DNA of 32,000 bases, from assembly GCF_900079115.1 (NCBI RefSeq), contig NZ_LT549890.1, forward strand, positions 450,001-482,000, read 5' to 3'. Both the position numbers and the translations under genes were made by a program. Source of the stretch: Saccharolobus solfataricus. GTDB taxonomy: Archaea > Thermoproteota > Thermoprotei_A > Sulfolobales > Sulfolobaceae. This document shows positions 7,706-25,024 of the stretch, in pieces. The notes beneath the pieces were generated by a model. That model searched no databases. It worked only from the letters and a program-made list of their open reading frames with translations, and was not told the origin of the DNA. Numbering within the stretch: position 1 is the stretch's first letter; each line of letters opens with the position of its first letter.

Positions 7706-7984
7706 ATGCCTTCCTTTTACGTTAATTCTAATTTCTATATAAAAGAGATTAAGGGGAAGTATTATGTTTACTTAATAGAGAAGGATAATGGAAATAAGAG
7801 AAGGCATAATTACGTAGGTCCTTTAGATAAGATCATAGAATCTTATATTGGGGGTGTGGGGGTGTCCCCCATAATCCCAAAGTGCCGCGGCCGGGATTTG
7901 AACCCGGGTCACGGGCTCGAAAGGCCCGCATTCTTTCGGTGCCTGCGCTTGACCGGGCTAAACCACCGCGGCAAGTCCTCATAA
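7706..7984 (+). pseudogene. SSV-type (partitioning) integrase, N-terminal fragment Int(N) reading into the tRNA-Glu gene
   Basis: IKEIKGKYYVYLIEKDNGNKRRHNYVGPLDKIIESYIGG matches the SSV1 integrase N-terminus pattern G.YYVY..E..NG....YVGPL...ESY. From about codon 60 the ORF is antisense to the tRNA at 7883-7972, as expected when the attachment site lies inside the integrase gene. Confidence 0.75.
7883..7972 (-). tRNA. tRNA-Glu(UUC) with about 15-17 extra nucleotides between the D stem and anticodon stem (non-canonical intron)
   Basis: The reverse complement is GCCGCGGTGGTTTAGCCCGGTCAAGCGCAGGCACCGAAAGAATGCGGGCCTTTCGAGCCCGTGACCCGGGTTCAAATCCCGGCCGCGGCA. Acceptor stem is GCCGCGG/CCGCGGC. T arm is CCGGG-TTCAAAT-CCCGG. 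Anticodon arm is CGGGC-CTTTCGA-GCCCG. CCA is not encoded. Confidence 0.75.
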
Positions 7985-11885: not shown

Positions 11886-13067
11886 TTATTTTAAAACTCC
11901 GATAAACTCTGCAAATTTTATAGTAAATATTGCTAATATCCCTAGGAAACCGGTGAAATAAAATGAGTATAACGGCGTTATTTGGAACAGCAAACCTACG
12001 ATTGCATTATAAAATACTGAAAATATTCTCACAAAAGTACTAATTAGTGCAACTTGAGTCCCCCGGATTTCAGGCTTAGTAACGCTCTGTGCGACATTAT
12101 AATCCACTATACTTTCCATAGCTACAATTACCGTCCAAGCGTAAAATAATAAGAATAAAATATAAACATTAGTAAAGAGTGGAACTAGGAAAAATATGAC
12201 GGAGTTGGAGAAGATTAAGATTGATAAGTTCTTAAAATTACTACGTTTACTTAAAATAACCGAGAACAGTAACGGTAAGAAAGCCATTATTAATGCGTAT
12301 GATGAATATAACACACCTACAAATGTTAAGGGTAGTAGTAAGTCTTTTACGAAATAGATTGTTACGTAATATGTCTCTAGGCTTAAACCGGAAGAAAGAA
12401 TTGAAACTAACAAATAGAGTAACAATTTCTTGTCTTCTTTAAGGTATTTAAAGCCTAATCTTAGAGATCTTTTCACTTCAACCTTGTTCTCGTCTTTCGG
12501 TAATTCAAGAAACCTTATAATACCGCTGATTCCGAAAAGAACCGCTATTATTGTGAAAAGTAGCGTAGAGACCGAGTGTTGTAACAAGTAGCCCCCTAAC
12601 ATAATCCCTATAGCTGCTAAGATGCTGGTTATGAGGGAGAAAACCCCAAAGGCCTTCCCTGCATTCGTATAATTTAGCATAAATCTATGCGCTCCTAAGG
12701 AATTAACTATTCTTATCACAGATTCAAAAATTACAAGAGAAATTATAAAAAGTAAGGGATTAAGCGTTCCCATCAAGAGGAACAAAGGTACTGCCATTAG
12801 TGCTGATAGAGTGACTGCATTCTTACTACCTATTTTATCAACTATAGCACCTAATGGAATATTAAAAACTACGTAAAGGAAACTGATTATACTGTAAATT
12901 ATACCAATTGTGAAGGTAGTAATGTCGAGGTTAGTCATAATTATAGGAAAATAGTATGTCAACAGTGAGTAAGCAAAGGTAGAAATCCCCAAAGATAATG
13001 AAAAATAGAGCAGTCTCTTATCTGCTACAATGTAATAGATCTCTTTTAGTGTTTGCTTCAGACCCAT
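11886..13067 (-). CDS. Major facilitator superfamily transporter
   Basis: 393 aa with about 12 hydrophobic segments. The loop GAIVDKIGSKN after TM2 resembles MFS motif A. The start lies 18 bp downstream of the radical SAM gene stop. Confidence 0.7.
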   Translation of the reverse strand: MGLKQTLKEIYYIVADKRLLYFSLSLGISTFAYSLLTYYFPIIMTNLDITTFTIGIIYSIISFLYVVFNIPLGAIVDKIGSKNAVTLSALMAVPLFLLMGTLNPLLFIISLVIFESVIRIVNSLGAHRFMLNYTNAGKAFGVFSLITSILAAIGIMLGGYLLQHSVSTLLFTIIAVLFGISGIIRFLELPKDENKVEVKRSLRLGFKYLKEDKKLLLYLLVSILSSGLSLETYYVTIYFVKDLLLPLTFVGVLYSSYALIMAFLPLLFSVILSKRSNFKNLSILIFSNSVIFFLVPLFTNVYILFLLFYAWTVIVAMESIVDYNVAQSVTKPEIRGTQVALISTFVRIFSVFYNAIVGLLFQITPLYSFYFTGFLGILAIFTIKFAEFIGVLK

Positions 13068-13085
13068 AACTAATAGACCTCTTCT

Positions 13086-14171
13086 TTAACTTTTTCCAAT
13101 ATAATCTTTAACTATTTGACATGAAGGGTCTGGAGCAAATAGGTCATTCTTAGTTATATATGCATTAAACCTAAAACCACCTCTACAAAGCTTCTTAACT
13201 TCACAACTCTTACAAGGCTCTCTAAGGAAAGATAGACTTCTTATTTTATTAAGCAAGAGATTGTTAAACCAAATTTCAACTAATGAGTCGTTTTTTATAT
13301 TACCTAGCTTTGATAATGGGATAGATGTCGCCTCGGAACTAGGATAAATGTCACCGTTCGGAGCTATAACTAAACCTACTTCCCCCCAATTTGTAGGGAT
13401 TGGTATCCTAGAATATAAAATGTCAGTATCCACATAATTTTGTATAAAATTCTCCCCATAAATTTCTATGAGTCTCTTTAATTTTTCTTGAATTGTTCTT
13501 TCATCGTTAGGATCTGGTACTATGAACTTTTGGTTTATATAACCATGACCTACCTTTATAACACTATGAATTTCAATCCAATCTAAGTTTGATTTATATG
13601 CAAGTTCCGCAATTTCTTCTAAGAAGTCCAAATAATAACTAGTCAAGACTATATTGCCTCCAACTTCCTTTACTCCAAAATCTTTAAATTTCTTTGCGAT
13701 ATTAATCTTCTTAGCTACTTCGTTCTTGATATGCATTATTGGGGATTGTATATTAAAGACGTATTTATGTGAAGTAAGGTTAATTCTAATCTTTTCTAGA
13801 CCACTTTCTAGCAATTTTGTAATTCTATCATCGGAAATAGGTTCTCCGCTACTTAATAACATGTGCCTTAGTTTTTGTCTTGTAACATATGACAAGATTT
13901 CCTCTAAATCGCTTCTTAACAACGGTTCTCCTCCAGTTATCACAACATCCATGATTCCCTCGTATTTTTCATCTAACCTTTTAATTTGATTAATTACTGA
14001 TATCCACTCACTTAAGTTTAGCTCATTCATTTCTATTACAGATCTAGGTTTTGGAACTTTATCAGCTATATAAAATTTTAGATCTTTAGGTGGATTATGA
14101 CAATAAATGCATTGCTGACTACATTTATAAGTTAATTCTAATTCAATAAAAAAAGGTTTACGATTTATCAA
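13086..14171 (-). CDS. Radical SAM enzyme with a reduced SPASM/twitch-like C-terminal Cys motif
   Basis: It has CSQQCIYC (C-x3-C-x2-C) at residues 17-24, a GGEPLL SAM-binding motif, and a C-terminal PCKSCEVKKLCRGGF...DPSC. The protein has exactly 7 Cys in total. The start is TTG at 14171. Confidence 0.85.
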   Translation of the reverse strand: MINRKPFFIELELTYKCSQQCIYCHNPPKDLKFYIADKVPKPRSVIEMNELNLSEWISVINQIKRLDEKYEGIMDVVITGGEPLLRSDLEEILSYVTRQKLRHMLLSSGEPISDDRITKLLESGLEKIRINLTSHKYVFNIQSPIMHIKNEVAKKINIAKKFKDFGVKEVGGNIVLTSYYLDFLEEIAELAYKSNLDWIEIHSVIKVGHGYINQKFIVPDPNDERTIQEKLKRLIEIYGENFIQNYVDTDILYSRIPIPTNWGEVGLVIAPNGDIYPSSEATSIPLSKLGNIKNDSLVEIWFNNLLLNKIRSLSFLREPCKSCEVKKLCRGGFRFNAYITKNDLFAPDPSCQIVKDYIGKS

Positions 14172-14208: not shown

Positions 14209-14397
14209 TTACCAAGAAACCATGTAGTATGAAGGTGGATGTATTGTATAGTACATCATATATTTTCTTCGTTGCATTGCTATTTCGGTTTCAAACTTTT
14301 TTATAATATATTCTTTACTTACTTCTGTTTCCAATGTTTTCACCCGTATGATATAGATGTTTTGAACAGCTTTTTTTTTAAAACTCTCGATACTCAT
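14209..14397 (-). CDS. Small ORF, candidate precursor peptide with an aromatic-rich C-terminus
   Basis: 62 aa: MSIESFKKKAVQNIYIIRVKTLETEVSKEYIIKKFETEIAMQRRKYMMYYTIHPPSYYMVSW. It is on the same strand as the radical SAM gene and ends 37 bp upstream of its start. Coding status is unproven. Confidence 0.4.
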   Translation of the reverse strand: MSIESFKKKAVQNIYIIRVKTLETEVSKEYIIKKFETEIAMQRRKYMMYYTIHPPSYYMVSW

Positions 14398-14440: not shown

Positions 14441-15044
14441 AATAGCATTTATAGGAAAATCCTTGCAGTTTAAGGAGACTTTGAAAACTTTTTAAAAAAT
14501 AACCAAACAAAATATCGGATGAATATAAACTCATTATACTTTGTCAGACCTTAAAGGGCAAGATTTATGTTTCATGAGTAATACTAAATTGTATGCCGAA
14601 ATCTAGAATGCACGGTATAACTCTCAATAAGAAACAAGAGGAAGAGAGGAGAATTAGCGTATAAAAGACGTGAAGAACGGTATGAGAATAAAGGACGTGA
14701 TCAAGAAGTATGATGTCTCCTTCTTTACCGTGTGCAAACAGTTGAGGAAAGGTGACTTGAGCGCTAAGCCGAGGAAGGGACCCACGAAACTGAAGGAAGA
14801 GAAAAAGCTCGTTCAAATCTTAGAAAAGAGCCCAAGAGATTTCGGCTTGAACTACGACTTCTGGACCTTGAAGCTCATAGCCTATATACTTGAGAAGTAA
14901 TATGGAATAAAATACAACCCGAGGAGTTTAACTCCAGTCCCCAAGAAGTTGGGCTTCAAGTATAAGAAAGGAAAAAGGACTTACGTGAGAGACGAGAAGA
15001 CAGTAGAAGATGGGTGAAGGAACAAGGGGAGAAGCTTTTATAAC
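14441..15044 (+). mobile_element. IS630/Tc1-type element, left part only (decayed)
   Basis: The terminal sequence AGCATTTATAGGAAAATCCTTGCA at 14444-14467 is the inverted form of the 9447-9470 end. Inside lies a broken HTH transposase N-terminus. Confidence 0.6.
14670..14900 (+). pseudogene. IS630-family transposase, N-terminal HTH fragment
   Basis: ...IKDVIKKYDVSFFTVCKQLRKGDLSAKPRKGPTKLKEEKKLVQILEKSPRDFGLNYDFWTLKLIAYIL fits the IS630 pattern P.KGrP.kl.......P...G.....WT. The upstream (MPKSRMHGITL...) and downstream parts are in other frames. Confidence 0.65.
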
Positions 15045-15248
15045 TTGTCTGGTTGAAAGATCACATGGTTGTCTCACCCGTTAATCCTAACGAATCGCTG
15101 CACTCTTCATTGAGAGATAGGCTCGTACATTTTAAGAGGACTACTAAGGCAGTAAATAGGAGCATTAGTACCATGATGTACTACATAGTCCTAGTCTTGT
15201 CGTAGAGAATGTTAATTCCAGAATTTGTAGGTTAATGACGACACTATC
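15045..15248 (+). mobile_element. Right-end fragment of an IS1-type element
   Basis: It encodes VSHPVNPNESLHSSLRDRLVHFKRTTKAVNRS... and ends in GTTAATGACGACACTATC. It is homologous to the minus-strand 3' part and terminal repeat of the element at 20974-21737. Confidence 0.6.
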
Positions 15249-15373
15249 TCCAGACTGTTGTAACTTCGGTAAAAATATATTATATATAGAGTAAGATCGG
15301 AAAAAACTTAATATAATATGTATGTTCTATATATTTCTCTATATTCTAAATACAGTATCTTTTTAAACATATT

Positions 15374-16234
15374 ATGAAATATTCTACACAGATAAAGGTG
15401 GAAATTAGTTCTAAAGTTGAATACATAACAGGGAAAAACTTAATACCCAAAATAAAGTCCATTTTTTCTAATATTGAGATAAAAATTGAAAATAGTGAGT
15501 TAGAAGATAAACAGTTCAAAGATTTTCTAAAATCGTATTATAACTTTTATGATAGTTCCAAGATAGATACCATTTTTATTATTGAAGTTAATTTAATCGA
15601 TGAAACTTATAGAGGACTTGGCATTGGTTCATACGATACAAAGACTAATATCTCGTCTCTCTATTTTGAGTGGGAATCAACAACTAAATATGAAGTGCAA
15701 GCTGCTAGTGGTGGCTCCATAATTTGCTGGGATTACTCTACTTATTCAAAAGCGTATCATGGTGCTGTTAACATAAGTTCTGTCGCGGGAACATTAGAAG
15801 GTTTTCCATTAGAAGCAAATGTTACATATTTAACCCTAAACGACGAGGGTGAGATAGTATTCCAAGGATATCAGAAAGGTATAGTTAAGACTATTAACGG
15901 GATACGAGTTGGTAAAGTTAAATTAGTTGGGCTTATTGATGAAAAATTCCGGTTGAATACTTCGCCGGGTTATGCAGTATATCTGACACAGAAAAATGAC
16001 AATATAATGTATGGAGTTTATAATCAGATACAAGTAGACCCCATGGGTAGAATGTATTACGAAACCGCCATTAGAGAATATAAAATATATAGTGGCAGAA
16101 AATTACCATTTGATGAGGTTATGATATTTAAATACAAAGATGCTAATTTCAATCAGATAAAGAGTAATAAAAGAATAGATTCAATGTCACATATAGCATA
16201 TTATATGCCGGCAAAAGACCCTTACGGGAAATAA
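15374..16234 (+). CDS. Hypothetical cytoplasmic protein (286 aa) with no recognisable motif
   Basis: Long ORF with an ATG start and no signal peptide or TM segment. Its stop is 2 nt before the next gene start. Confidence 0.6.
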   Translation: MKYSTQIKVEISSKVEYITGKNLIPKIKSIFSNIEIKIENSELEDKQFKDFLKSYYNFYDSSKIDTIFIIEVNLIDETYRGLGIGSYDTKTNISSLYFEWESTTKYEVQAASGGSIICWDYSTYSKAYHGAVNISSVAGTLEGFPLEANVTYLTLNDEGEIVFQGYQKGIVKTINGIRVGKVKLVGLIDEKFRLNTSPGYAVYLTQKNDNIMYGVYNQIQVDPMGRMYYETAIREYKIYSGRKLPFDEVMIFKYKDANFNQIKSNKRIDSMSHIAYYMPAKDPYGK

Positions 16235-16236
16235 TC

Positions 16237-16974
16237 ATGGTTGAGGAAGCCATTATTCAACTTACTGGAGGAATAGATTCCACAGTATTAGCGTATTATC
16301 TTAAAAAAGATAAATATGTGTTGCATGGAACTTTCATACATTACGGCTATCCTCCCCAGATAAAAGAATTAGAGTTAGTTAAAGAATTGTCTAAAAAGCT
16401 CGATATCCCTCTAAAGATTATTGATTTTTCCTCTTATATTAAGTCTTTCGATCTCCCTCCAATAGATTCTATACAATACATAATTAAGTACCAGTTCGTG
16501 GTAGAAATCCTAGCATCTTTTTCAGCTTATCCGAATCTAAATACCATGTTTGTGGGCTGGCTTAAGGATGAGTGGAATAATAGAATAAGTCTTTTGAAGG
16601 ATATTGAATCTCTTATGGGTTTTAAGGTTATAGCACCTTTTCACACAATGGTAAAAAGTGAAGTTATTAAATTGGGTAATGAATTAGGTGTAGATTTTAC
16701 AAAAACTCATAGTTGCATTGTATCTGGAAAAATGCACTGCGGCATATGTATGGCGTGTAGATCTAGAAGAAGAGCTTTTGAAGAGGTAAAAGTTAAAGAT
16801 CCTACAATCTACTACTATAATTTGCCTCCCGCTGAGGTAGATAAATTATCAAGGGAACTGAGCCTGGAGGAATTCGTAGAGAGATTTTTCAAACCATTCT
16901 TACAATATACCGGAGAATATCCTAAAGAATTTGTGGATAATTTAGCACATATTTTAAGAAAATATAACGGTTGA
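16237..16974 (+). CDS. QueC-like PP-loop ATP pyrophosphatase (divergent 7-cyano-7-deazaguanine synthase family)
   Basis: The N-terminal PP-loop is IQLTGGIDSTV (SGGxDS type). The C-terminal motif is HSCIVSGKMHCGICMACRSRRRAF, a C-x7-C-x2-C-x2-C zinc motif like that of QueC. Internal QueC motifs as I recall them (YGQ, VP.RN, YPDC) read YGY, absent and absent. Confidence 0.7.
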   Translation: MVEEAIIQLTGGIDSTVLAYYLKKDKYVLHGTFIHYGYPPQIKELELVKELSKKLDIPLKIIDFSSYIKSFDLPPIDSIQYIIKYQFVVEILASFSAYPNLNTMFVGWLKDEWNNRISLLKDIESLMGFKVIAPFHTMVKSEVIKLGNELGVDFTKTHSCIVSGKMHCGICMACRSRRRAFEEVKVKDPTIYYYNLPPAEVDKLSRELSLEEFVERFFKPFLQYTGEYPKEFVDNLAHILRKYNG

Positions 16975-18059
16975 ATGTAATGAAGAAATATGTTTTAACA
17001 TATAGGTCAATTATCTCATTTTTCGTAGGTTTCATGAGTTTTGCGTTCATAGCTTTAATGAAAATATCGGGCTTAAGTGGCTTTCAAATAGGATTAATAT
17101 TAAGTACCATATCAATATCTCAGTTTATTGCATATATTATTTTGATAGCCTTCTCGATAAGGAGAAATATCTTGGTCTCGGCAGCATTAGAACTTCTTAT
17201 ACCAATAATTTTAATTATCCAAAGAAGTGCTTTTACTTTCACCCTCTCTGCGATTTTTATGGGTATTGTCAACTCTATAAATTCTTCAGTTATAATAATT
17301 CAGAAAGAATTTACGAGAAAGGATTATTCAATAATGATGACCTTAACTTACGCCCTTAGCTTAGCAGGATTAGGAATATTTTACTTAAGTAAAATAATAG
17401 GAATAAATACCACCCTTCTTTTATTATTTATTCCCTTATTGTCTCTAAACTTAATATTAACATTAATGCTTAGATATGAAGAGAAGAAAGAGAGCTTGTC
17501 GGAACTCTACTCTTGGTTAAAGAACGTTGGAAAGTCAGTTTTAGTCTTTGGCTTCTTTGCGAGTTTAAGAAGGGTTCTAATTACAAGTTATATACCCTTA
17601 ATTCTCCTTACATTATTTTATACATATACTCCGCAAGAAATAAGTTTATACCTCATGATAATTCAAGTTCCTCTAATTATTTTCTTTTATCTAGGCCATA
17701 AAATAAGTGTGAGAATTTTCATAACGTTGTCTATAGTAGAATTAATTCTTTTCTTATCGCTTTCTATATTTTATCGGGAATCAATATTACTATTCTTATC
17801 CTTGATACTTTTAGCTAACATGTCTTCATCCTTAAGGGCTCCAGTTGTTGAAGAGACAGTAAATAAATTGTTAAATTTCAGTACAAAAATTTCTTCATTT
17901 TACCACTTGATGGATACGATCTTCTCGGCGTTAGCGTCAATCTTGCTTGCATTTATGGTAAAATTGGATTTGTTTTATGGAATTTTTGTAATAGCAGGGT
18001 TATCTTCACTCTTGCCGTCTTTATTTGTATACAAGGTTATGCTACAGCAAAGGAAATAG
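16971..18059 (+). CDS. Polytopic membrane protein with about 10-12 TM helices, MFS-like
   Basis: 362-aa hydrophobic ORF. It overlaps the stop of the QueC-like gene by 4 nt (TTG at 16971; an ATG lies at 16980). Confidence 0.6.
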   Translation: MNVMKKYVLTYRSIISFFVGFMSFAFIALMKISGLSGFQIGLILSTISISQFIAYIILIAFSIRRNILVSAALELLIPIILIIQRSAFTFTLSAIFMGIVNSINSSVIIIQKEFTRKDYSIMMTLTYALSLAGLGIFYLSKIIGINTTLLLLFIPLLSLNLILTLMLRYEEKKESLSELYSWLKNVGKSVLVFGFFASLRRVLITSYIPLILLTLFYTYTPQEISLYLMIIQVPLIIFFYLGHKISVRIFITLSIVELILFLSLSIFYRESILLFLSLILLANMSSSLRAPVVEETVNKLLNFSTKISSFYHLMDTIFSALASILLAFMVKLDLFYGIFVIAGLSSLLPSLFVYKVMLQQRK

Positions 18060-18231
18060 TAAATAAAATGTGTAACAGCAAGCAATCTCTAAAAATAATA
18101 GAGCTTTCGATATTTTTCAGAGACATGTTTAAGGCTAATAAAAAATAGATTTTTATAAAAGAAATTTATCTTATTCCGATAAGGATTAGGTACAAATATT
18201 CAGTCTTATGATACTATTTCCACTCCTTTAG

Positions 18232-19337: not shown

Positions 19338-20511
19338 GGGAGTGTTCTCATGCAGTCATCTTATTCGATAAGTATTAGTAAAATTATATTAGATGATCTC
19401 TAATATACTGTACTCCGCTCAAATAGGCTAAGTTCAAGGGAGTTTTCTCGTCTGTGAAAACTTGCGGGTACATGACGTTCAACAAGGCCAGGCTGTAGTC
19501 AATCATCGCCCTGCTCCTGTTTACGGCCTTCGTGTCCCTAGCTAGCCGAGCTAAGTGAGACCTACAGAATGAGTTGTAGCTCTCCACGGTGTGGGTGTAC
19601 TTCTTGCCCACAACGTGGTGATACAAGACTTGATAGATTGGGTAGTCGTCGGTGTAGTGGACCTCGCACTTGGGGAGTGACAGCCAAAGAAGACGGAAGG
19701 TGTTGTAGTCCCTGTCACCGGTGACAAAGAAGGGGACTCCGTCGATCAAAGCGTTCCAGATCCAGAGGTTCTGTCGTCTGGGACCGCGTCTCACGCGGAC
19801 GTAAGTCCAGCTCTCGTCTAGGACCGCGAACTTCGACCTGAAGGCCTTCAATTGGGCTTGCAAGATCGACAAGTCAACGTAAGCCTTCAAGGCTGCCCTC
19901 TTCACCGAGCTGTAGACCGTGGTCAATGGCCTTCCCTCAACCTTGGATATTCCCCTCAAGCTCATCCTGTTGGTGTACTCCCTCAAGATCCTCTCCCTCT
20001 GCTCCCTGCTCATCCTGTGACTCGCAGTTCCGTAAAAGGTCCTCCCGCAGACCTTGCACTTGTACTTGCTCTTCCCTCTGGACGAACCGTTCTTGATCAC
20101 GCGATCCGAGTTGCAGGAAGGACATCTCGGTCTCACGTCCTTCCTCCTCTTTACCCCGAGCTTCCTGGTGTAGTAATACAACGTGGAGGGCGGTATATTG
20201 AGCTTCGTGATCTGTACTCCCATCACGTAAGCTGCAATGGCTAATGCGATTTCCTCTGGCTTGTGCTTTCGGGGCTTAAGGTTTAAATTTCTTAGGACGA
20301 ATAGTATAAGTTGTGCGAGGGCCACGAGGTTCATGATGCCTACCTAAAGAACCTCGAGGTCCTCGCACATAAGTCTTTTCAATTCCACACGTCCTCAAGT
20401 CTTCAGGTCCACTCGTTGTAACGACTACAAAAATCCTTGAAGAGATTTCTTCATCACCTTAATATTTTTACTAATACTTATCGAATAAGATGACTGCATG
20501 AGAACACTCCC
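19338..20511 (-). mobile_element. IS1-family insertion sequence, 1174 bp (ISC1173 size class)
   Basis: GGGAGTGTTCTCATGCAGTCATCTTATTCGATAAGTATTAGTAAAA at 19338-19383 is mirrored at 20466-20511, giving 46-bp inverted repeats. No flanking direct repeat was recognised. Confidence 0.85.
19384..20334 (-). CDS. IS1-family transposase
   Basis: 316 aa with an N-terminal zinc ribbon CPSCNSDRVIKNGSSRGKSKYKCKVCGRTF (InsA-like). The C-terminal region contains ...LARLARDTKAVNRS... Confidence 0.8.
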   Translation of the reverse strand: MNLVALAQLILFVLRNLNLKPRKHKPEEIALAIAAYVMGVQITKLNIPPSTLYYYTRKLGVKRRKDVRPRCPSCNSDRVIKNGSSRGKSKYKCKVCGRTFYGTASHRMSREQRERILREYTNRMSLRGISKVEGRPLTTVYSSVKRAALKAYVDLSILQAQLKAFRSKFAVLDESWTYVRVRRGPRRQNLWIWNALIDGVPFFVTGDRDYNTFRLLWLSLPKCEVHYTDDYPIYQVLYHHVVGKKYTHTVESYNSFCRSHLARLARDTKAVNRSRAMIDYSLALLNVMYPQVFTDEKTPLNLAYLSGVQYIRDHLI

Positions 20512-20973: not shown

Positions 20974-21737
20974 GATAGTGTCGTCATTAAGCTACAAATT
21001 CAGGGATTAGCCTTCTCTCCCATAAGACTGGCGCTATGGAGTACTTCATCATGTTTATGCTCCTATTTACAGCCTTCGTTGCCCTCTTAAACCTAACAAG
21101 CCTATCCCTTAATGAGGAGTGCAAGGACTCATTGGGGTTAACGGGTGAGACTACCGTGTGATTTTTAACCAGAAATAAACGTTGTAATCGTCACTAACCC
21201 ACCATCATCTGGCAAGTGAACCTTAATCTCACGAAAAGTATTCTCATCCCTCACCTAAGACTAAATTATGTAAGCCCCCATCTTCGTGTAAGCGTAACAA
21301 GTGGAAACCCACTTGTAAAAAGTCCTAGTGTTTCTATACAAGTATGTCCACATCTCATCAACAATCTTAGTAACAACTTTACCCTTGACCAGCTCTTTAG
21401 CCTGATCCCACGAGCCTCTCGTGCTTCTGCCCACCATAACGCTTAATCCAGGTGAAAACAGTACCCAGAGGCACATTAAGTACCCTAGAAATAGCCCTCA
21501 TACTCATATTAGCATACTTCTTAAAGCCTCAACTCCCTGGAGTGATCGTGATAAATTGCGTTTGCAAGGAAGTACTTACCACAATCCCTACACAAATACC
21601 TCTGCTTATCCAGAGGCTTACCACACTTAACAACGTGATGACTATGACAAGAGGGACAAGCTATGCCTAATTACAAGCTTCCTACCCATAAGTAATGCTC
21701 GTTATACAAATATAAATAGCTTAATGACCACACTATC
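20974..21737 (-). mobile_element. Non-autonomous or decayed IS1-type element, 764 bp, with an 8-bp target duplication
   Basis: GATAGTGTCGTCATTAAGC at 20974-20992 and GCTTAATGACCACACTATC at 21719-21737 form 19-bp IRs with one mismatch. AAATTTTC occurs at both 20966-20973 and 21738-21745. Minus-strand remnants read CPSCHSHHVVKCGKPLDKQRYLCRDCGKYF and ...FKRATKAVNRS..., broken by stops and frameshifts. Confidence 0.8.
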
Positions 21738-21794
21738 AAATTTTCCACTGATAACTATAAGTAAATTAGTAATTCTATTAAGATAGAAACCGGA

Positions 21795-24827: not shown

Positions 24828-24932
24828 AGACTTAAACTTATTGATGTTATTCAGATATTATTAATTTAGCTCTTACTTTTAGTAGTTCATCATCGAGAAA
24901 ACTATTGAAATTATTAGCAAATTTAGTTAAGG

Positions 24933-25024
<92 letters not shown>

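Follow-up and report, generated by a model that had tools for sequence, protein, structure and literature searches.

A predicted GFP-fold barrel protein encoded with a divergent QueC-family enzyme and an MFS-like membrane protein in an archaeal operon

In the stretch of Saccharolobus solfataricus DNA analyzed here (32,000 nucleotides, referred to as the window), three co-directional genes on the forward strand, A, B and C, form an operon (Table 1) that does not serve queuosine or archaeosine synthesis and corresponds to no known system. The product of gene A, a cytoplasmic protein from a rare, previously undescribed prokaryotic family, is predicted to form an 11-strand beta-barrel of the GFP type with its residues ~60-286. 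Judged by its motifs and profile matches, B is a divergent PP-loop ATP pyrophosphatase of the QueC family, and C looks like a 12-TM protein of the MFS kind. The reading that we favor, tentatively, is that of an accessory, horizontally mobile module for modification and transport, the QueC-like ligase acting together with the barrel. The operon corresponds to SSO0545-0547, the numbers of B and C being assumed from A = SSO0545.

Table 1. Features of the A-B-C operon and its surroundings, in window coordinates.
Feature	Position (nt)	Strand	Remarks
IS630-like transposase remnant	14534-15055	+	decayed; weak HTH_32 match
Inverted repeat, left arm	15056-15248		193 nt; 80% complementary to 20974-21166
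TATA-like A/T-rich stretch	15327-15352	+	22-47 nt before the ATG of A, read from sequence; putative promoter
Gene A (SSO0545)	15374-16234	+	286 aa
Central helix of predicted barrel (A, aa 109-125)	15698-15748	+	motif S112-x2-S115-x2-(S/C)118
Gene B	16237-16974	+	245 aa
PP-loop TGGIDS (B, aa 10-15)	16264-16281	+	ATP-pyrophosphatase motif
Zinc site C160-x7-C168-x2-C171-x2-C174 (B)	16714-16758	+	four Cys invariant
C-terminal extension (B, aa 187-245)	16795-16971	+	clade-specific; not in canonical QueC/Cap9
Gene C	16980-18059 or 16971-18059	+	359 aa (ATG) or 362 aa (TTG)
T5 run	18113-18117	+	~55 nt past stop codon of C; possible terminator
Intact IS	19338-20511	-	50-nt terminal inverted repeats; IS1-family DDE transposase ORF 19384-20334
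Inverted repeat, right arm	20974-21166		193 nt; opens a ~765-bp non-coding repeated element (20974-21738)

A first-pass annotation of this DNA had placed a 2-nt gap between A and B and a 4-nt overlap between B and C. The A/B junction is as described (TAA-TC-ATG). The overlap, in turn, holds only with the TTG start of C at 16971. Because the NCBI product of C has 359 aa (P0027) and all homologs begin with MKxY, the start of C is probably the ATG at 16980, which lies 5 nt after the TGA of B and turns the overlap into a 5-nt gap. The TATA-like stretch in front of A may serve as promoter for a leaderless mRNA of the operon, and the T5 run behind C could be an archaeal terminator. An Rfam search upstream of the operon returned no ncRNA or riboswitch match. 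In agreement with the earlier annotation, queD, queE, folE, tgt and arcS domains were absent from all window ORFs of at least 90 aa, and no que or tgt gene was present in the related A-B-C loci examined.

The product of A had been described as motif-less. On the contrary, it carries a strongly conserved motif set and a predicted GFP-fold barrel. The fold prediction rests on 16 sequences: the AF2 model built from an alignment of A with remote homologs shows 11 strands and a central helix over residues ~61-286 (pLDDT 88.1, pTM 0.85), preceded by a helical N-terminal extension (aa 1-60). A model made with five close homologs reached a pLDDT of 34 and was not used. When the model was compared to the PDB with Foldseek, all of the best 50 listed matches were GFP-like; the fluorescent-protein chains aligned over ~230 columns (E down to 4.9e-14, TM 0.73-0.82), and the 598-aa PfNT1-GFP fusion gave a TM of 0.30. 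The strong matches in a viral library search were engineered GFP fusions only. At the sequence level, hhalign found matches to avGFP and DsRed that were colinear, weak and of low probability, and a profile search against PDB fluorescent proteins gave no match at E <= 10. Neither Pfam nor NCBIfam contained a family profile matching A above threshold, and neither PADLOC nor the sequence search of the PDB returned a match. A is not a known enzyme of an unrelated pathway, an outcome that the first-pass annotation had named as a reason to doubt a new module.

In a 22-sequence alignment of the A family, S112 is present in 22 sequences and S115 and S/C118 in 21 each. The family invariants (S112, S115, Q167, Y200, L204, Q206, Y216, Q218, R234, and Y236) place their Ser, Gln, Tyr and Arg residues in the central helix and in strands 5 and 7-9 of the predicted barrel. 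The GFP chromophore arises autocatalytically from an X-Tyr-Gly triad in which Gly67 is obligatory. From the FSR/YSK anchor and the strand order, we infer that C118-W119-D120 of A occupies the chromophore position. At this position the family tripeptide reads (S/C)-x-x, neither Gly nor Tyr being conserved, and the 22 aligned sequences contain no conserved chromophore Tyr-Gly. Like GFP-like proteins (PF01353) and the nidogen G2 barrel, A is predicted to be an 11-strand beta-can round a central helix. Unlike fluorescent proteins, with which it shares 8-15% identity, it has no X-Tyr-Gly triad and no Pfam match, and members of its family are found in both archaea and bacteria, where they share operons with genes for enzymes and transporters.

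The "charge-network" proteins (Schneider and Zimmer, bioRxiv 2026, 10.64898/2026.07.29.741452) are another rare, prokaryotic GFP-fold family, and they too have no chromophore tyrosine. Its members are 33-46% identical, reach ~42% identity to coral fluorescent proteins, keep the equivalents of G67, R96 and E222, and bury a network of two Arg, two Glu and one Tyr; none of its members is archaeal, and its gene context is not conserved (10.64898/2026.07.29.741452). It resembles the A family in being a rare prokaryotic GFP-fold barrel with a conserved buried polar site and no chromophore Tyr. The A family differs in its invariants, which are S, Q, Y, L and one R, in its conserved operon, and in showing no detectable similarity to fluorescent proteins at the sequence level.

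Both QueC hallmarks that had been ascribed to B, the TGGIDS PP-loop and the Cys4 zinc site, are present. Within the PP-loop, G11, G12, D14 and S15 are invariant in the B clade and in canonical QueC, and the first Ser of SGGxDS is replaced by Thr. The zinc site is followed by RSRRRAF, and the Lys of PF(x)4K is kept, so that B shares with canonical QueC the fold family, PP-loop, zinc site and this lysine. Accordingly, B scores 86.3 bits with Pfam QueC (PF06508; cutoff 22), aligns to canonical QueC in hhalign with a probability of 99.9, and finds QueC (3BL5, E 7.7e-8) and Cap9 (9NTO, E 1.5e-6) among PDB sequences. However, with the QueC equivalog TIGR00364 it reaches 65.7 bits, less than half of the 150.3 required.

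B has lost or remodeled residues that preQ0 synthesis requires. In E. coli QueC, Libby et al. (2026, PMC13329287) showed four residues, Y35, R99, Y131 and Y189, to be essential. The zinc site of canonical QueC is C(x)8CxxCxxC, with Y189 at +3 from the first Cys, where B has S163. The VPxRN motif that contains R99 aligns to L-P-P-I-D in both MAFFT and hhalign, and RN is absent; a conserved K/R84 lies eight residues downstream. YxQxHxxE has become Y36-G-Y-P-P-Q-I-K-E44, a version one residue longer that retains Tyr and Glu but has other residues in place of Gln and His. The substrate loop is aligned ambiguously: MAFFT and hhalign pair S-A-Y98-P-(N/D) of B with the QueC YPDC at the cost of deleting core strand beta4, phmmer puts W108 at this loop, and the Thermoplasmatota ortholog has F-P-G in place of Y-P-(N/D). 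In QueC, YPD binds the nucleobase, the Tyr stacking on the base and the Asp reading N1/N2 (PMC13279940). Compared to canonical QueC, B also lacks ~30 residues before helix 4 and has gained a 60-aa C-terminal extension. The earlier assignment of B as a divergent, non-housekeeping member of the family is supported by its equivalog score and by the loss or remodeling of preQ0 residues. The B family is very sparse, with 8 clusters at >= 62% identity.

C is less easily placed. Its hydropathy profile indicates 12 TM helices arranged as 6+6, the two halves being joined by a charged loop (aa 168-190). Pfam gave no MFS_1 match to C even at E = 10 (cutoff 33.4 bits), and PDB and NCBIfam profiles gave no match. 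Its 28%-identical Thermoplasmatota homolog scores 19.9 bits with MFS_1 (E 3.8e-4), two homologs are named "MFS transporter" in UniRef, and hhalign aligns C in register with the MFS protein of the window (E 0.0028, probability 11%).

The first-pass annotation had made its case depend on the trio being found together in other genomes, and so it is: the same genes in the same order occur in more than 15 independent loci. They are colinear in every sufficiently long Sulfolobales contig and in Thermoplasmatota of the Cuniculiplasma/G-plasma type (identity of 45% for A, 43% for B, and 28% for C), so that the A-B-C order is kept across two archaeal phyla. The wide synteny survey consists of metagenome contigs, the scan of species-representative genomes containing two loci only. 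All three genes are under purifying selection, with dN/dS of 0.29-0.37 for A, 0.09-0.15 for B, and 0.15-0.24 for C. The barrel gene has nevertheless decayed in some lineages in which B and C are full length. A is internally deleted in Stygiolobus caldivivus, reduced to its last ~43 codons in an Acidianus brierleyi-like contig, undetectable in Sulfuracidifex tepidarius, and interrupted by an in-frame TGA in one further lineage. In S. caldivivus, at equal divergence, dN is 0.37 for the A remnant vs 0.079 for B. It is thus probable that B and C function without A, and these losses count against A as an obligatory substrate.

The impression that the locus lies on mobile-looking DNA is supported by the IS-rich region, the 193-nt inverted repeats and a 3-3.5 kb block of ~91% nucleotide identity common to different genera. 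This block starts at 14534 in loci L001, L002 and L016-L018 and stops 7 nt past the stop codon of C (~18066), and the comparison indicates that A-B-C moved horizontally as a 3-3.5 kb unit. The 193-nt repeat sequence flanks the trio in L001 and L014-L020. The IS630-like remnant travels with the cassette in several genomes, and its frame contains stops and a frameshift in other loci. A 76-aa HTH ORF within it (14670-14900) was considered as a regulator and rejected, being part of the transposase remnant and having stops in other genomes. The intact IS, which lies between the operon and the right arm of the repeat as a separate insertion, does not belong to the module. Likewise, the radical-SAM/SPASM (PqqE-like) and MFS genes at 11886-14171 were discarded as system members: they are never syntenic with the trio, fall outside the conserved block, and are separated from it by the dead IS630-like gene. 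An origin of the trio from an integrated virus or plasmid was rejected as well, since the phage, plasmid and IMG/VR collections yielded no barrel homolog. An SSV-type integrase fragment at a tRNA-Ser lies 7 kb off and could not be tied to the trio.

Distant homologs of the barrel provide a second view of its gene contexts. The barrel is always the first gene of the cluster, and behind it are PIMT-type methyltransferases whose best matches are the RiPP methyltransferases TIGR04364 and TIGR04188. The clusters also encode ANL adenylating ligases, GNAT, carbamoyltransferase, a flavin halogenase-like enzyme with a TOMM leader-binding-like domain, and ABC or MFS-like transporters. Some barrel homologs are secreted or surface-anchored. 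By their gene content, the distant clusters carry carboxylate-activating or peptide-tailoring enzymes and look biosynthetic.

In the modify-and-transport module that we favor, B would adenylate a carboxylate with ATP and then couple it to an amine; it is proposed as a carboxylate-amine ligase because this is, to our knowledge, the sole chemistry of the QueC family. The barrel would serve B as a dedicated protein partner, whether substrate, scaffold or ligand carrier, and C would carry the small-molecule substrate or product through the membrane. Against such a partnership, B and C are intact where A is lost or disrupted, and MFS proteins transport small molecules, not folded proteins. In its support, besides the A-B-C linkage and the distant barrel contexts, there is the precedent of Cap9 and QatC, the characterized repurposed QueC clades, each of which acts on the protein encoded adjacent to it (PMC13279940; PMC13329287). 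However, the partners of Cap9 and QatC need an N-terminal Met-Gly motif, MGTS or MGGS (PMC13279940). No such Gly motif is present in the A proteins, whose N-termini read MKYST/MEISS, MEVEN, METKY and MYAEE.

A further reading, which we regard as improbable, is that the GFP-fold barrel matures with the help of an enzyme: B would install, on or inside it, a covalent adduct, a crosslink or a protein-derived cofactor or chromophore. The likely site would be the invariant Ser/Cys-rich central helix, where GFP forms its chromophore autocatalytically. In other lineages the role of B would fall to ANL ligases, PIMT-type methyltransferases, GNATs or flavoenzymes, and the transporter would supply a small molecule or remove the product.

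The strongest competitor of the barrel-partner model, although somewhat less probable in our opinion, is a two-gene small-molecule module. Here B would amidate, nitrilate or ligate a small carboxylate (possibly a 7-deazapurine, e.g., CDG), C would export the product or import a precursor, and the barrel would be an optional accessory for binding, sequestering or sensing. All lineages, the four with A lost or disrupted included, have intact copies of B and C side by side, and these two genes show the lowest dN/dS. The MFS-like topology of C suits small-molecule transport, the partly secreted or surface-anchored barrel homologs are what a binding domain should be, and S-A-Y-P-(D/N) of the B clade aligns (MAFFT, hhalign) with the nucleobase-binding YPD. 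However, this alignment drops strand beta4 and meets F-P-G in the Thermoplasmatota ortholog, and B has no equivalents of R99 and Y189. In addition, A, where present, is itself constrained (dN/dS 0.29-0.37) and has kept its linkage over phylum-level distance, and barrel homologs elsewhere stand beside peptide- or protein-directed tailoring enzymes.

It was also suggested that the module could be related to the anti-virus systems Qat or type IV CBASS. B would then modify A upon infection, and C would be the membrane effector. QueC-family enzymes beyond tRNA metabolism are indeed known best from defense systems, and the cassette is mobile and patchy; its surroundings are variable and in some genomes contain IS elements as well as toxin-antitoxin genes (PIN/MazE, HEPN/NTase). 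As in QatB-QatC, a QueC-family PP-loop enzyme that has additional terminal segments and a remodeled substrate pocket comes directly behind a partner without family assignment, which bears a long N-terminal extension; QatB and QatC form a complex. Cap9 is likewise a small QueC-like ligase, matched by B in the PDB, and its chemistry, a carboxylate adenylated and then attacked by an amine of the adjacent protein, is that of the family. Kinship with either system is nonetheless not supported by the tests made. QatA (the ATPase), QatD (the TatD nuclease), CD-NTase and the TGT-like Cap10 are absent from every locus examined. QatC scores are far below cutoff (18.7 bits vs 280 for NF041925), and PADLOC reports for B a generic QueC match only (QatC 16.8 bits, E 5.9e-4). 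QatC has ~400 aa with N- and C-terminal extensions, whereas B has 245 aa and a C-terminal extension only; the RN and YxDC core of canonical QueC persists in Cap9 but not clearly in B. The partner is a predicted GFP-fold barrel and not helical as QatB, and lacks the essential MGTS N-terminus of QatB and the N-terminal Gly of Cap9 partners. The third gene encodes an MFS-like 12-TM protein, which would be atypical as an effector. Taken with the biosynthetic look of distant barrel clusters and the absence of copies in phage, plasmid or IMG/VR collections, a defense role has a slim chance at best.

Finally, the database name of B in NCBI and UniRef, "7-cyano-7-deazaguanine synthase," agrees with its above-threshold Pfam QueC match and intact PP-loop and zinc site, but a role as preQ0 synthase for archaeosine, whether housekeeping or backup, is scarcely credible given the low equivalog score, the missing essential residues, the lack of queD/queE/folE/tgt neighbors, the horizontal transfer of B together with A and C, and its sporadic occurrence in a handful of species or strains as opposed to archaeosine, described as near-universal in archaeal tRNA (PMC5485725).

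Outside that pathway, B would be the third repurposing of the QueC scaffold after Cap9 and QatC, now in archaea. The GFP fold has been regarded as an animal speciality. The charge-network family, made public in an August 2026 preprint, is the sole prokaryotic GFP-fold family that we found in the literature. According to its predicted fold, the A family is the second one, sequence-unrelated to the first and present in archaea and bacteria, and its conserved enzymatic neighbors make its function experimentally approachable. The operon is present in S. solfataricus P2 and S. islandicus, both genetically tractable models, and these hosts could reveal if a dedicated enzyme modifies a GFP-type barrel.

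The three genes considered here, which encode a 286-aa protein (A), a 245-aa QueC-like protein (B) and a membrane protein (C), form a real operon. In strain P2, gene A is SSO0545 (Q7LXV4), an exact match, and B is 100% identical to an S. solfataricus protein that NCBI names '7-cyano-7-deazaguanine synthase'. The spacer between A and B is TAA-TC-ATG. The first-pass annotation had proposed a three-gene operon with a 4-nt overlap between B and C; the co-directional genes are present, but the overlap is probably a 5-nt gap, since the most likely start of C is the ATG at 16980 (359 aa), as judged from the length of the NCBI product and from homologs beginning with MKxY. The absence of a que, tgt or arcS partner, also noted there, holds for all window ORFs of at least 90 aa.

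Features of the operon and of the surrounding window (positions in the window)
Feature	Position	Strand or direction	Remark
92-aa ORF	7706-7984	+	matches SSV1 D-335 integrase N-terminus (E 9.7e-14)
tRNA-Ser(CGA)	7882-7972	-	overlapped by the 92-aa ORF
MFS transporter	11886-13067	-	beside the maturase
PqqE-like radical-SAM/SPASM maturase	13086-14171	-	
62-aa ORF	14209-14397	-	just upstream of the maturase
IS630-like transposase gene	14534-15055		dead
~91% identity block shared with S. metallicus	14534 (or 15067)-18066		
193-nt inverted repeat, left arm	15056-15248		
Gene A (SSO0545)	15374-16234	same as B and C	ORF
Gene B	16237-16974	same as A and C	ORF
Gene C	16971-18059, or from ATG 16980	same as A and B	ORF
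Intact IS	between the 193-nt arms		50-nt terminal repeats
193-nt inverted repeat, right arm	20974-21166		
~765-bp element	20974-21738		non-coding
'tRNA-SeC (tca)'	24931-25024	-	ARAGORN call

The rest of the window contains several transposases, an SSV-type integrase fragment at tRNA-Ser, a radical-SAM/SPASM enzyme with an MFS protein, and, from 26 kb on, mevalonate-pathway and housekeeping genes. The overlap of the integrase fragment with tRNA-Ser is the hallmark of a site of SSV-type integration, or of what remains of one. The segment 11886-14397 looks, from its gene content, like an orphan RiPP-type unit, and its genes are not syntenic with the trio in other loci. As to the tRNA-SeC call, selenocysteine is not expected in Sulfolobales, and the gene is probably a mis-typed long-arm or intron-containing tRNA.

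All Sulfolobales contigs of sufficient length show A-B-C in colinear order, with carriers in S. solfataricus, S. islandicus, Sulfuracidifex metallicus, Stygiolobus sp. and many hot-spring metagenomes, and the order is kept in Cuniculiplasma/G-plasma-type Thermoplasmatota at 45% (A), 43% (B) and 28% (C) identity. The neighbouring genes differ genome by genome. S. solfataricus and S. metallicus, which belong to different genera, share a block of ~91% nucleotide identity that stops 7 nt past the stop codon of C, and 193-nt inverted repeats bracket the operon. Differing flanks, a block shared across genera and ending near the C stop, and bracketing repeats together indicate horizontal transfer of a discrete cassette, which is mobile and conserved across phyla. 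The dN/dS ratios are 0.29-0.37 for A, 0.09-0.15 for B and 0.15-0.24 for C.

Several observations concern the history of the cassette. A ~765-bp non-coding element begins with the right repeat arm. In the flanks of other loci (L001, L014-L023) the start of this element is found upstream of the trio and the final ~70 bp downstream, each inverted. The arrangement resembles a circular permutation and would fit recombination of the cassette through the element. Within the same genome pairs (window versus L001 or L014), dS climbs along the operon (A 0.09-0.13, B 0.28-0.29, C 0.35-0.43), which suggests that recombination or gene conversion took place within the cassette. In several lineages the IS630-like gene moved together with the operon; its stops and frameshifts vary between genomes. 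A CP_ATPgrasp and transglutaminase (plus Alpha-E) cluster is found 2-6 kb from B-C in Stygiolobus caldivivus and Sulfuracidifex tepidarius, on opposite sides of B-C (L003:5620-8113 and L005:15741-18227), and may reflect coincidence or regional synteny.

B is a remodelled member of the QueC family fold and, judged by its scores and residues, not a preQ0 synthase. Pfam QueC matches it clearly (86.3 bits); with the curated QueC equivalog model it reaches 65.7 bits, where the cutoff is 150.3. Both hallmarks originally ascribed to it were found, the TGGIDS PP-loop at aa 10-15 and a four-cysteine zinc site (C160-x7-C168-x2-C171-x2-C174) followed by RSRRRAF. The canonical signature comprises SGGxDS, YxQxHxxE, VPxRN, YPDC, K165 and C(x)8CxxCxxC, with Y35, R99, Y131 and Y189 essential (Libby et al., 2026, PMC13329287). 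The PP-loop, the four cysteines and the lysine of PF(x)4K (K140) have been retained in B and its eight clade members. Internal substrate motifs, noted earlier as not recognisable, are changed: Y-G-Y-P-P-Q-x-x-E replaces YxQxHxxE, the RN of VPxRN aligns to no Arg-Asn, and Ser stands in place of Tyr three residues past the first zinc cysteine. In addition, ~30 residues ahead of helix 4 are absent and a 60-aa C-terminal extension is present. How the nucleobase loop aligns is ambiguous. With MAFFT and hhalign, the clade motif S-A-Y-P-(D/N) falls on YPDC at the cost of deleting core strand beta4, whereas phmmer and a gapless reading take T-M-F-V-G-W as beta4 and delete the nucleobase loop instead; the Thermoplasmatota ortholog has F-P-G at the S-A-Y-P-(D/N) position.

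Protein A, earlier labelled motif-less, has a conserved residue set, and its predicted fold is a GFP-type barrel. Its close homologs are few, and an AF2 model from those alone had a pLDDT of 34. Searching 1.84 billion representative proteins exhaustively with a profile recovered 26 proteins, including homologs of 226-290 aa at 22-31% identity. The remote homologs come from a Chloroflexota MAG, Thermoprotei MAGs, Nonomuraea, marine metagenomes and a PGF-CTERM surface protein, and none has a Pfam match. With a 16-sequence alignment, AF2 gave five agreeing models (pLDDT 88.1, pTM 0.85) with eleven predicted strands, the third and fourth of which are separated by a helix (~aa 109-125). Foldseek returned 1271 PDB matches at E <= 0.001, the best 50 of which are all GFP-like (zFP538, KillerRed, DsRed, Dronpa, avGFP variants and others); for the GFP-like matches listed, E values go down to 4.9e-14 over ~230 columns at 8-15% identity, with target-normalised TM of 0.73-0.82. 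The only strong matches in a viral structure library were recombinant GFP fusion proteins. Alignment of A with avGFP and DsRed by hhalign had low probability, yet was colinear.

In a 22-sequence alignment, S112, Q167, G199, Y200, L204, Y216 and Y236 of A are strictly invariant, and S115, (S/C)118, Q206, Q218, R234, G186, P245-F-D-E248, Y277 and P279 nearly so. Since conserved strand residues are spaced i, i+2, and Y216 and Q218 align to the chromophore-contacting I161 and K163 of DsRed, we infer a buried conserved polar site around the Ser/Cys-rich central helix. A GFP-type autocatalytic chromophore is not expected because neither Tyr nor Gly is conserved in the equivalent tripeptide, which is C118-W119-D120 in A and (S/C)-x-x across the family. 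In a divergent Sulfolobales lineage (L007:357-1202 and L008:1-759, two non-identical contigs from different samples), an in-frame TGA falls exactly at the W119 codon, the position mapped to GFP Tyr66, in an otherwise intact ORF (SIVC*DYS versus SIICWDYS); either a recent nonsense mutation or read-through could account for it.

In all five independent clusters the barrel gene leads a run of co-directional genes. It precedes a QueC-like gene and a C homolog in Thermoplasmatota; a PIMT-type methyltransferase, ABC ATPase, ABC-2 permease and ANL (AMP-binding) ligase in Chloroflexota; an 862-aa flavin halogenase-like enzyme, PIMT-type methyltransferase and two unknowns on a marine contig; a PIMT-related 248-aa protein, NodU-type carbamoyltransferase, ANL-related protein and two ABC exporters on a large contig; and a 331-aa GNAT protein and a 12-TM protein with a weak MFS match in Thermoprotei. 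The halogenase-like enzyme is weakly similar to the protein-cofactor maturases LodB and QhpG, and its N-terminal region resembles a TOMM leader-peptide-binding domain below cutoff (E 8.4e-6). The PIMT-type enzymes best match, also below cutoff, RiPP methyltransferases of FxLD lanthipeptide and graspetide systems. One theme recurs, namely a barrel followed by a carboxylate-activating, amide-forming or peptide-tailoring enzyme and then a transporter. Among the distant homologs P0062, P0066 and P0065, two have N-terminal signal peptides and one, of 634 aa, carries Ig-like domains and a PGF-CTERM anchor after the barrel; the fold is therefore used extracellularly as well.

C is likely MFS-like. 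Hydropathy predicts 12 helices (6+6) with a charged central loop, and C itself has no profile match in Pfam, NCBIfam or PDB. Its first six helices align in register with the bona fide MFS protein of the window (hhalign E 0.0028, probability 11%), the Thermoplasmatota ortholog (28% identity) matches MFS_1 at E 3.8e-4, and UniRef labels two homologs 'MFS transporter'.

Taken together, we tentatively favor a reading in which B would catalyze ATP-dependent carboxylate activation and ligation, acting with barrel A as substrate, scaffold or ligand carrier, while C would transport a small-molecule substrate or product. The main rival, somewhat less probable, is that B and C are a self-sufficient small-molecule pair and the barrel an optional binding accessory. 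Its strongest argument is the repeated loss of A. The gene has an internal deletion and a frameshift in S. caldivivus, is reduced to its last ~43 codons in an Acidianus brierleyi-like contig, is undetectable in S. tepidarius and carries the single TGA at W119 in one lineage; B and C are intact in all four cases. At equal divergence, the S. caldivivus A remnant has a dN of 0.37 versus 0.079 for B.

A defence function, suggested earlier because divergent bacterial QueC-like proteins occur in Qat and type IV CBASS, is improbable. B is about equally far from the PDB sequences of B. subtilis QueC (3BL5, E 7.7e-8) and Cap9 (9NTO, E 1.5e-6). None of the Qat and CBASS membership features tested was found; the QatC model scores 18.7 bits against a cutoff of 280, and PADLOC gives a generic QueC match only. 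That B is a housekeeping QueC is highly improbable, being contradicted by its residues, equivalog score, context and distribution, which is far too sparse for such an enzyme because only 8 clusters at >=62% identity occur among 5.8 billion proteins.

A prokaryotic GFP-fold family described in a preprint (August 2026; 10.64898/2026.07.29.741452) keeps G67, R96 and E222; it lacks archaeal members and occurs in variable contexts. It differs from the A family: its members share ~42% identity with coral fluorescent proteins, whereas a search with the A profile, taken up to E = 10, matched none of the fluorescent proteins in the PDB. Our literature search found no other report of prokaryotic GFP-fold proteins and no mention of SSO0545-0547. 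Two of the three proteins are without a described family, and the combination of parts matches no system known to us. To our knowledge, the searchable literature describes no GFP-fold protein from archaea that has a dedicated enzyme encoded beside it.
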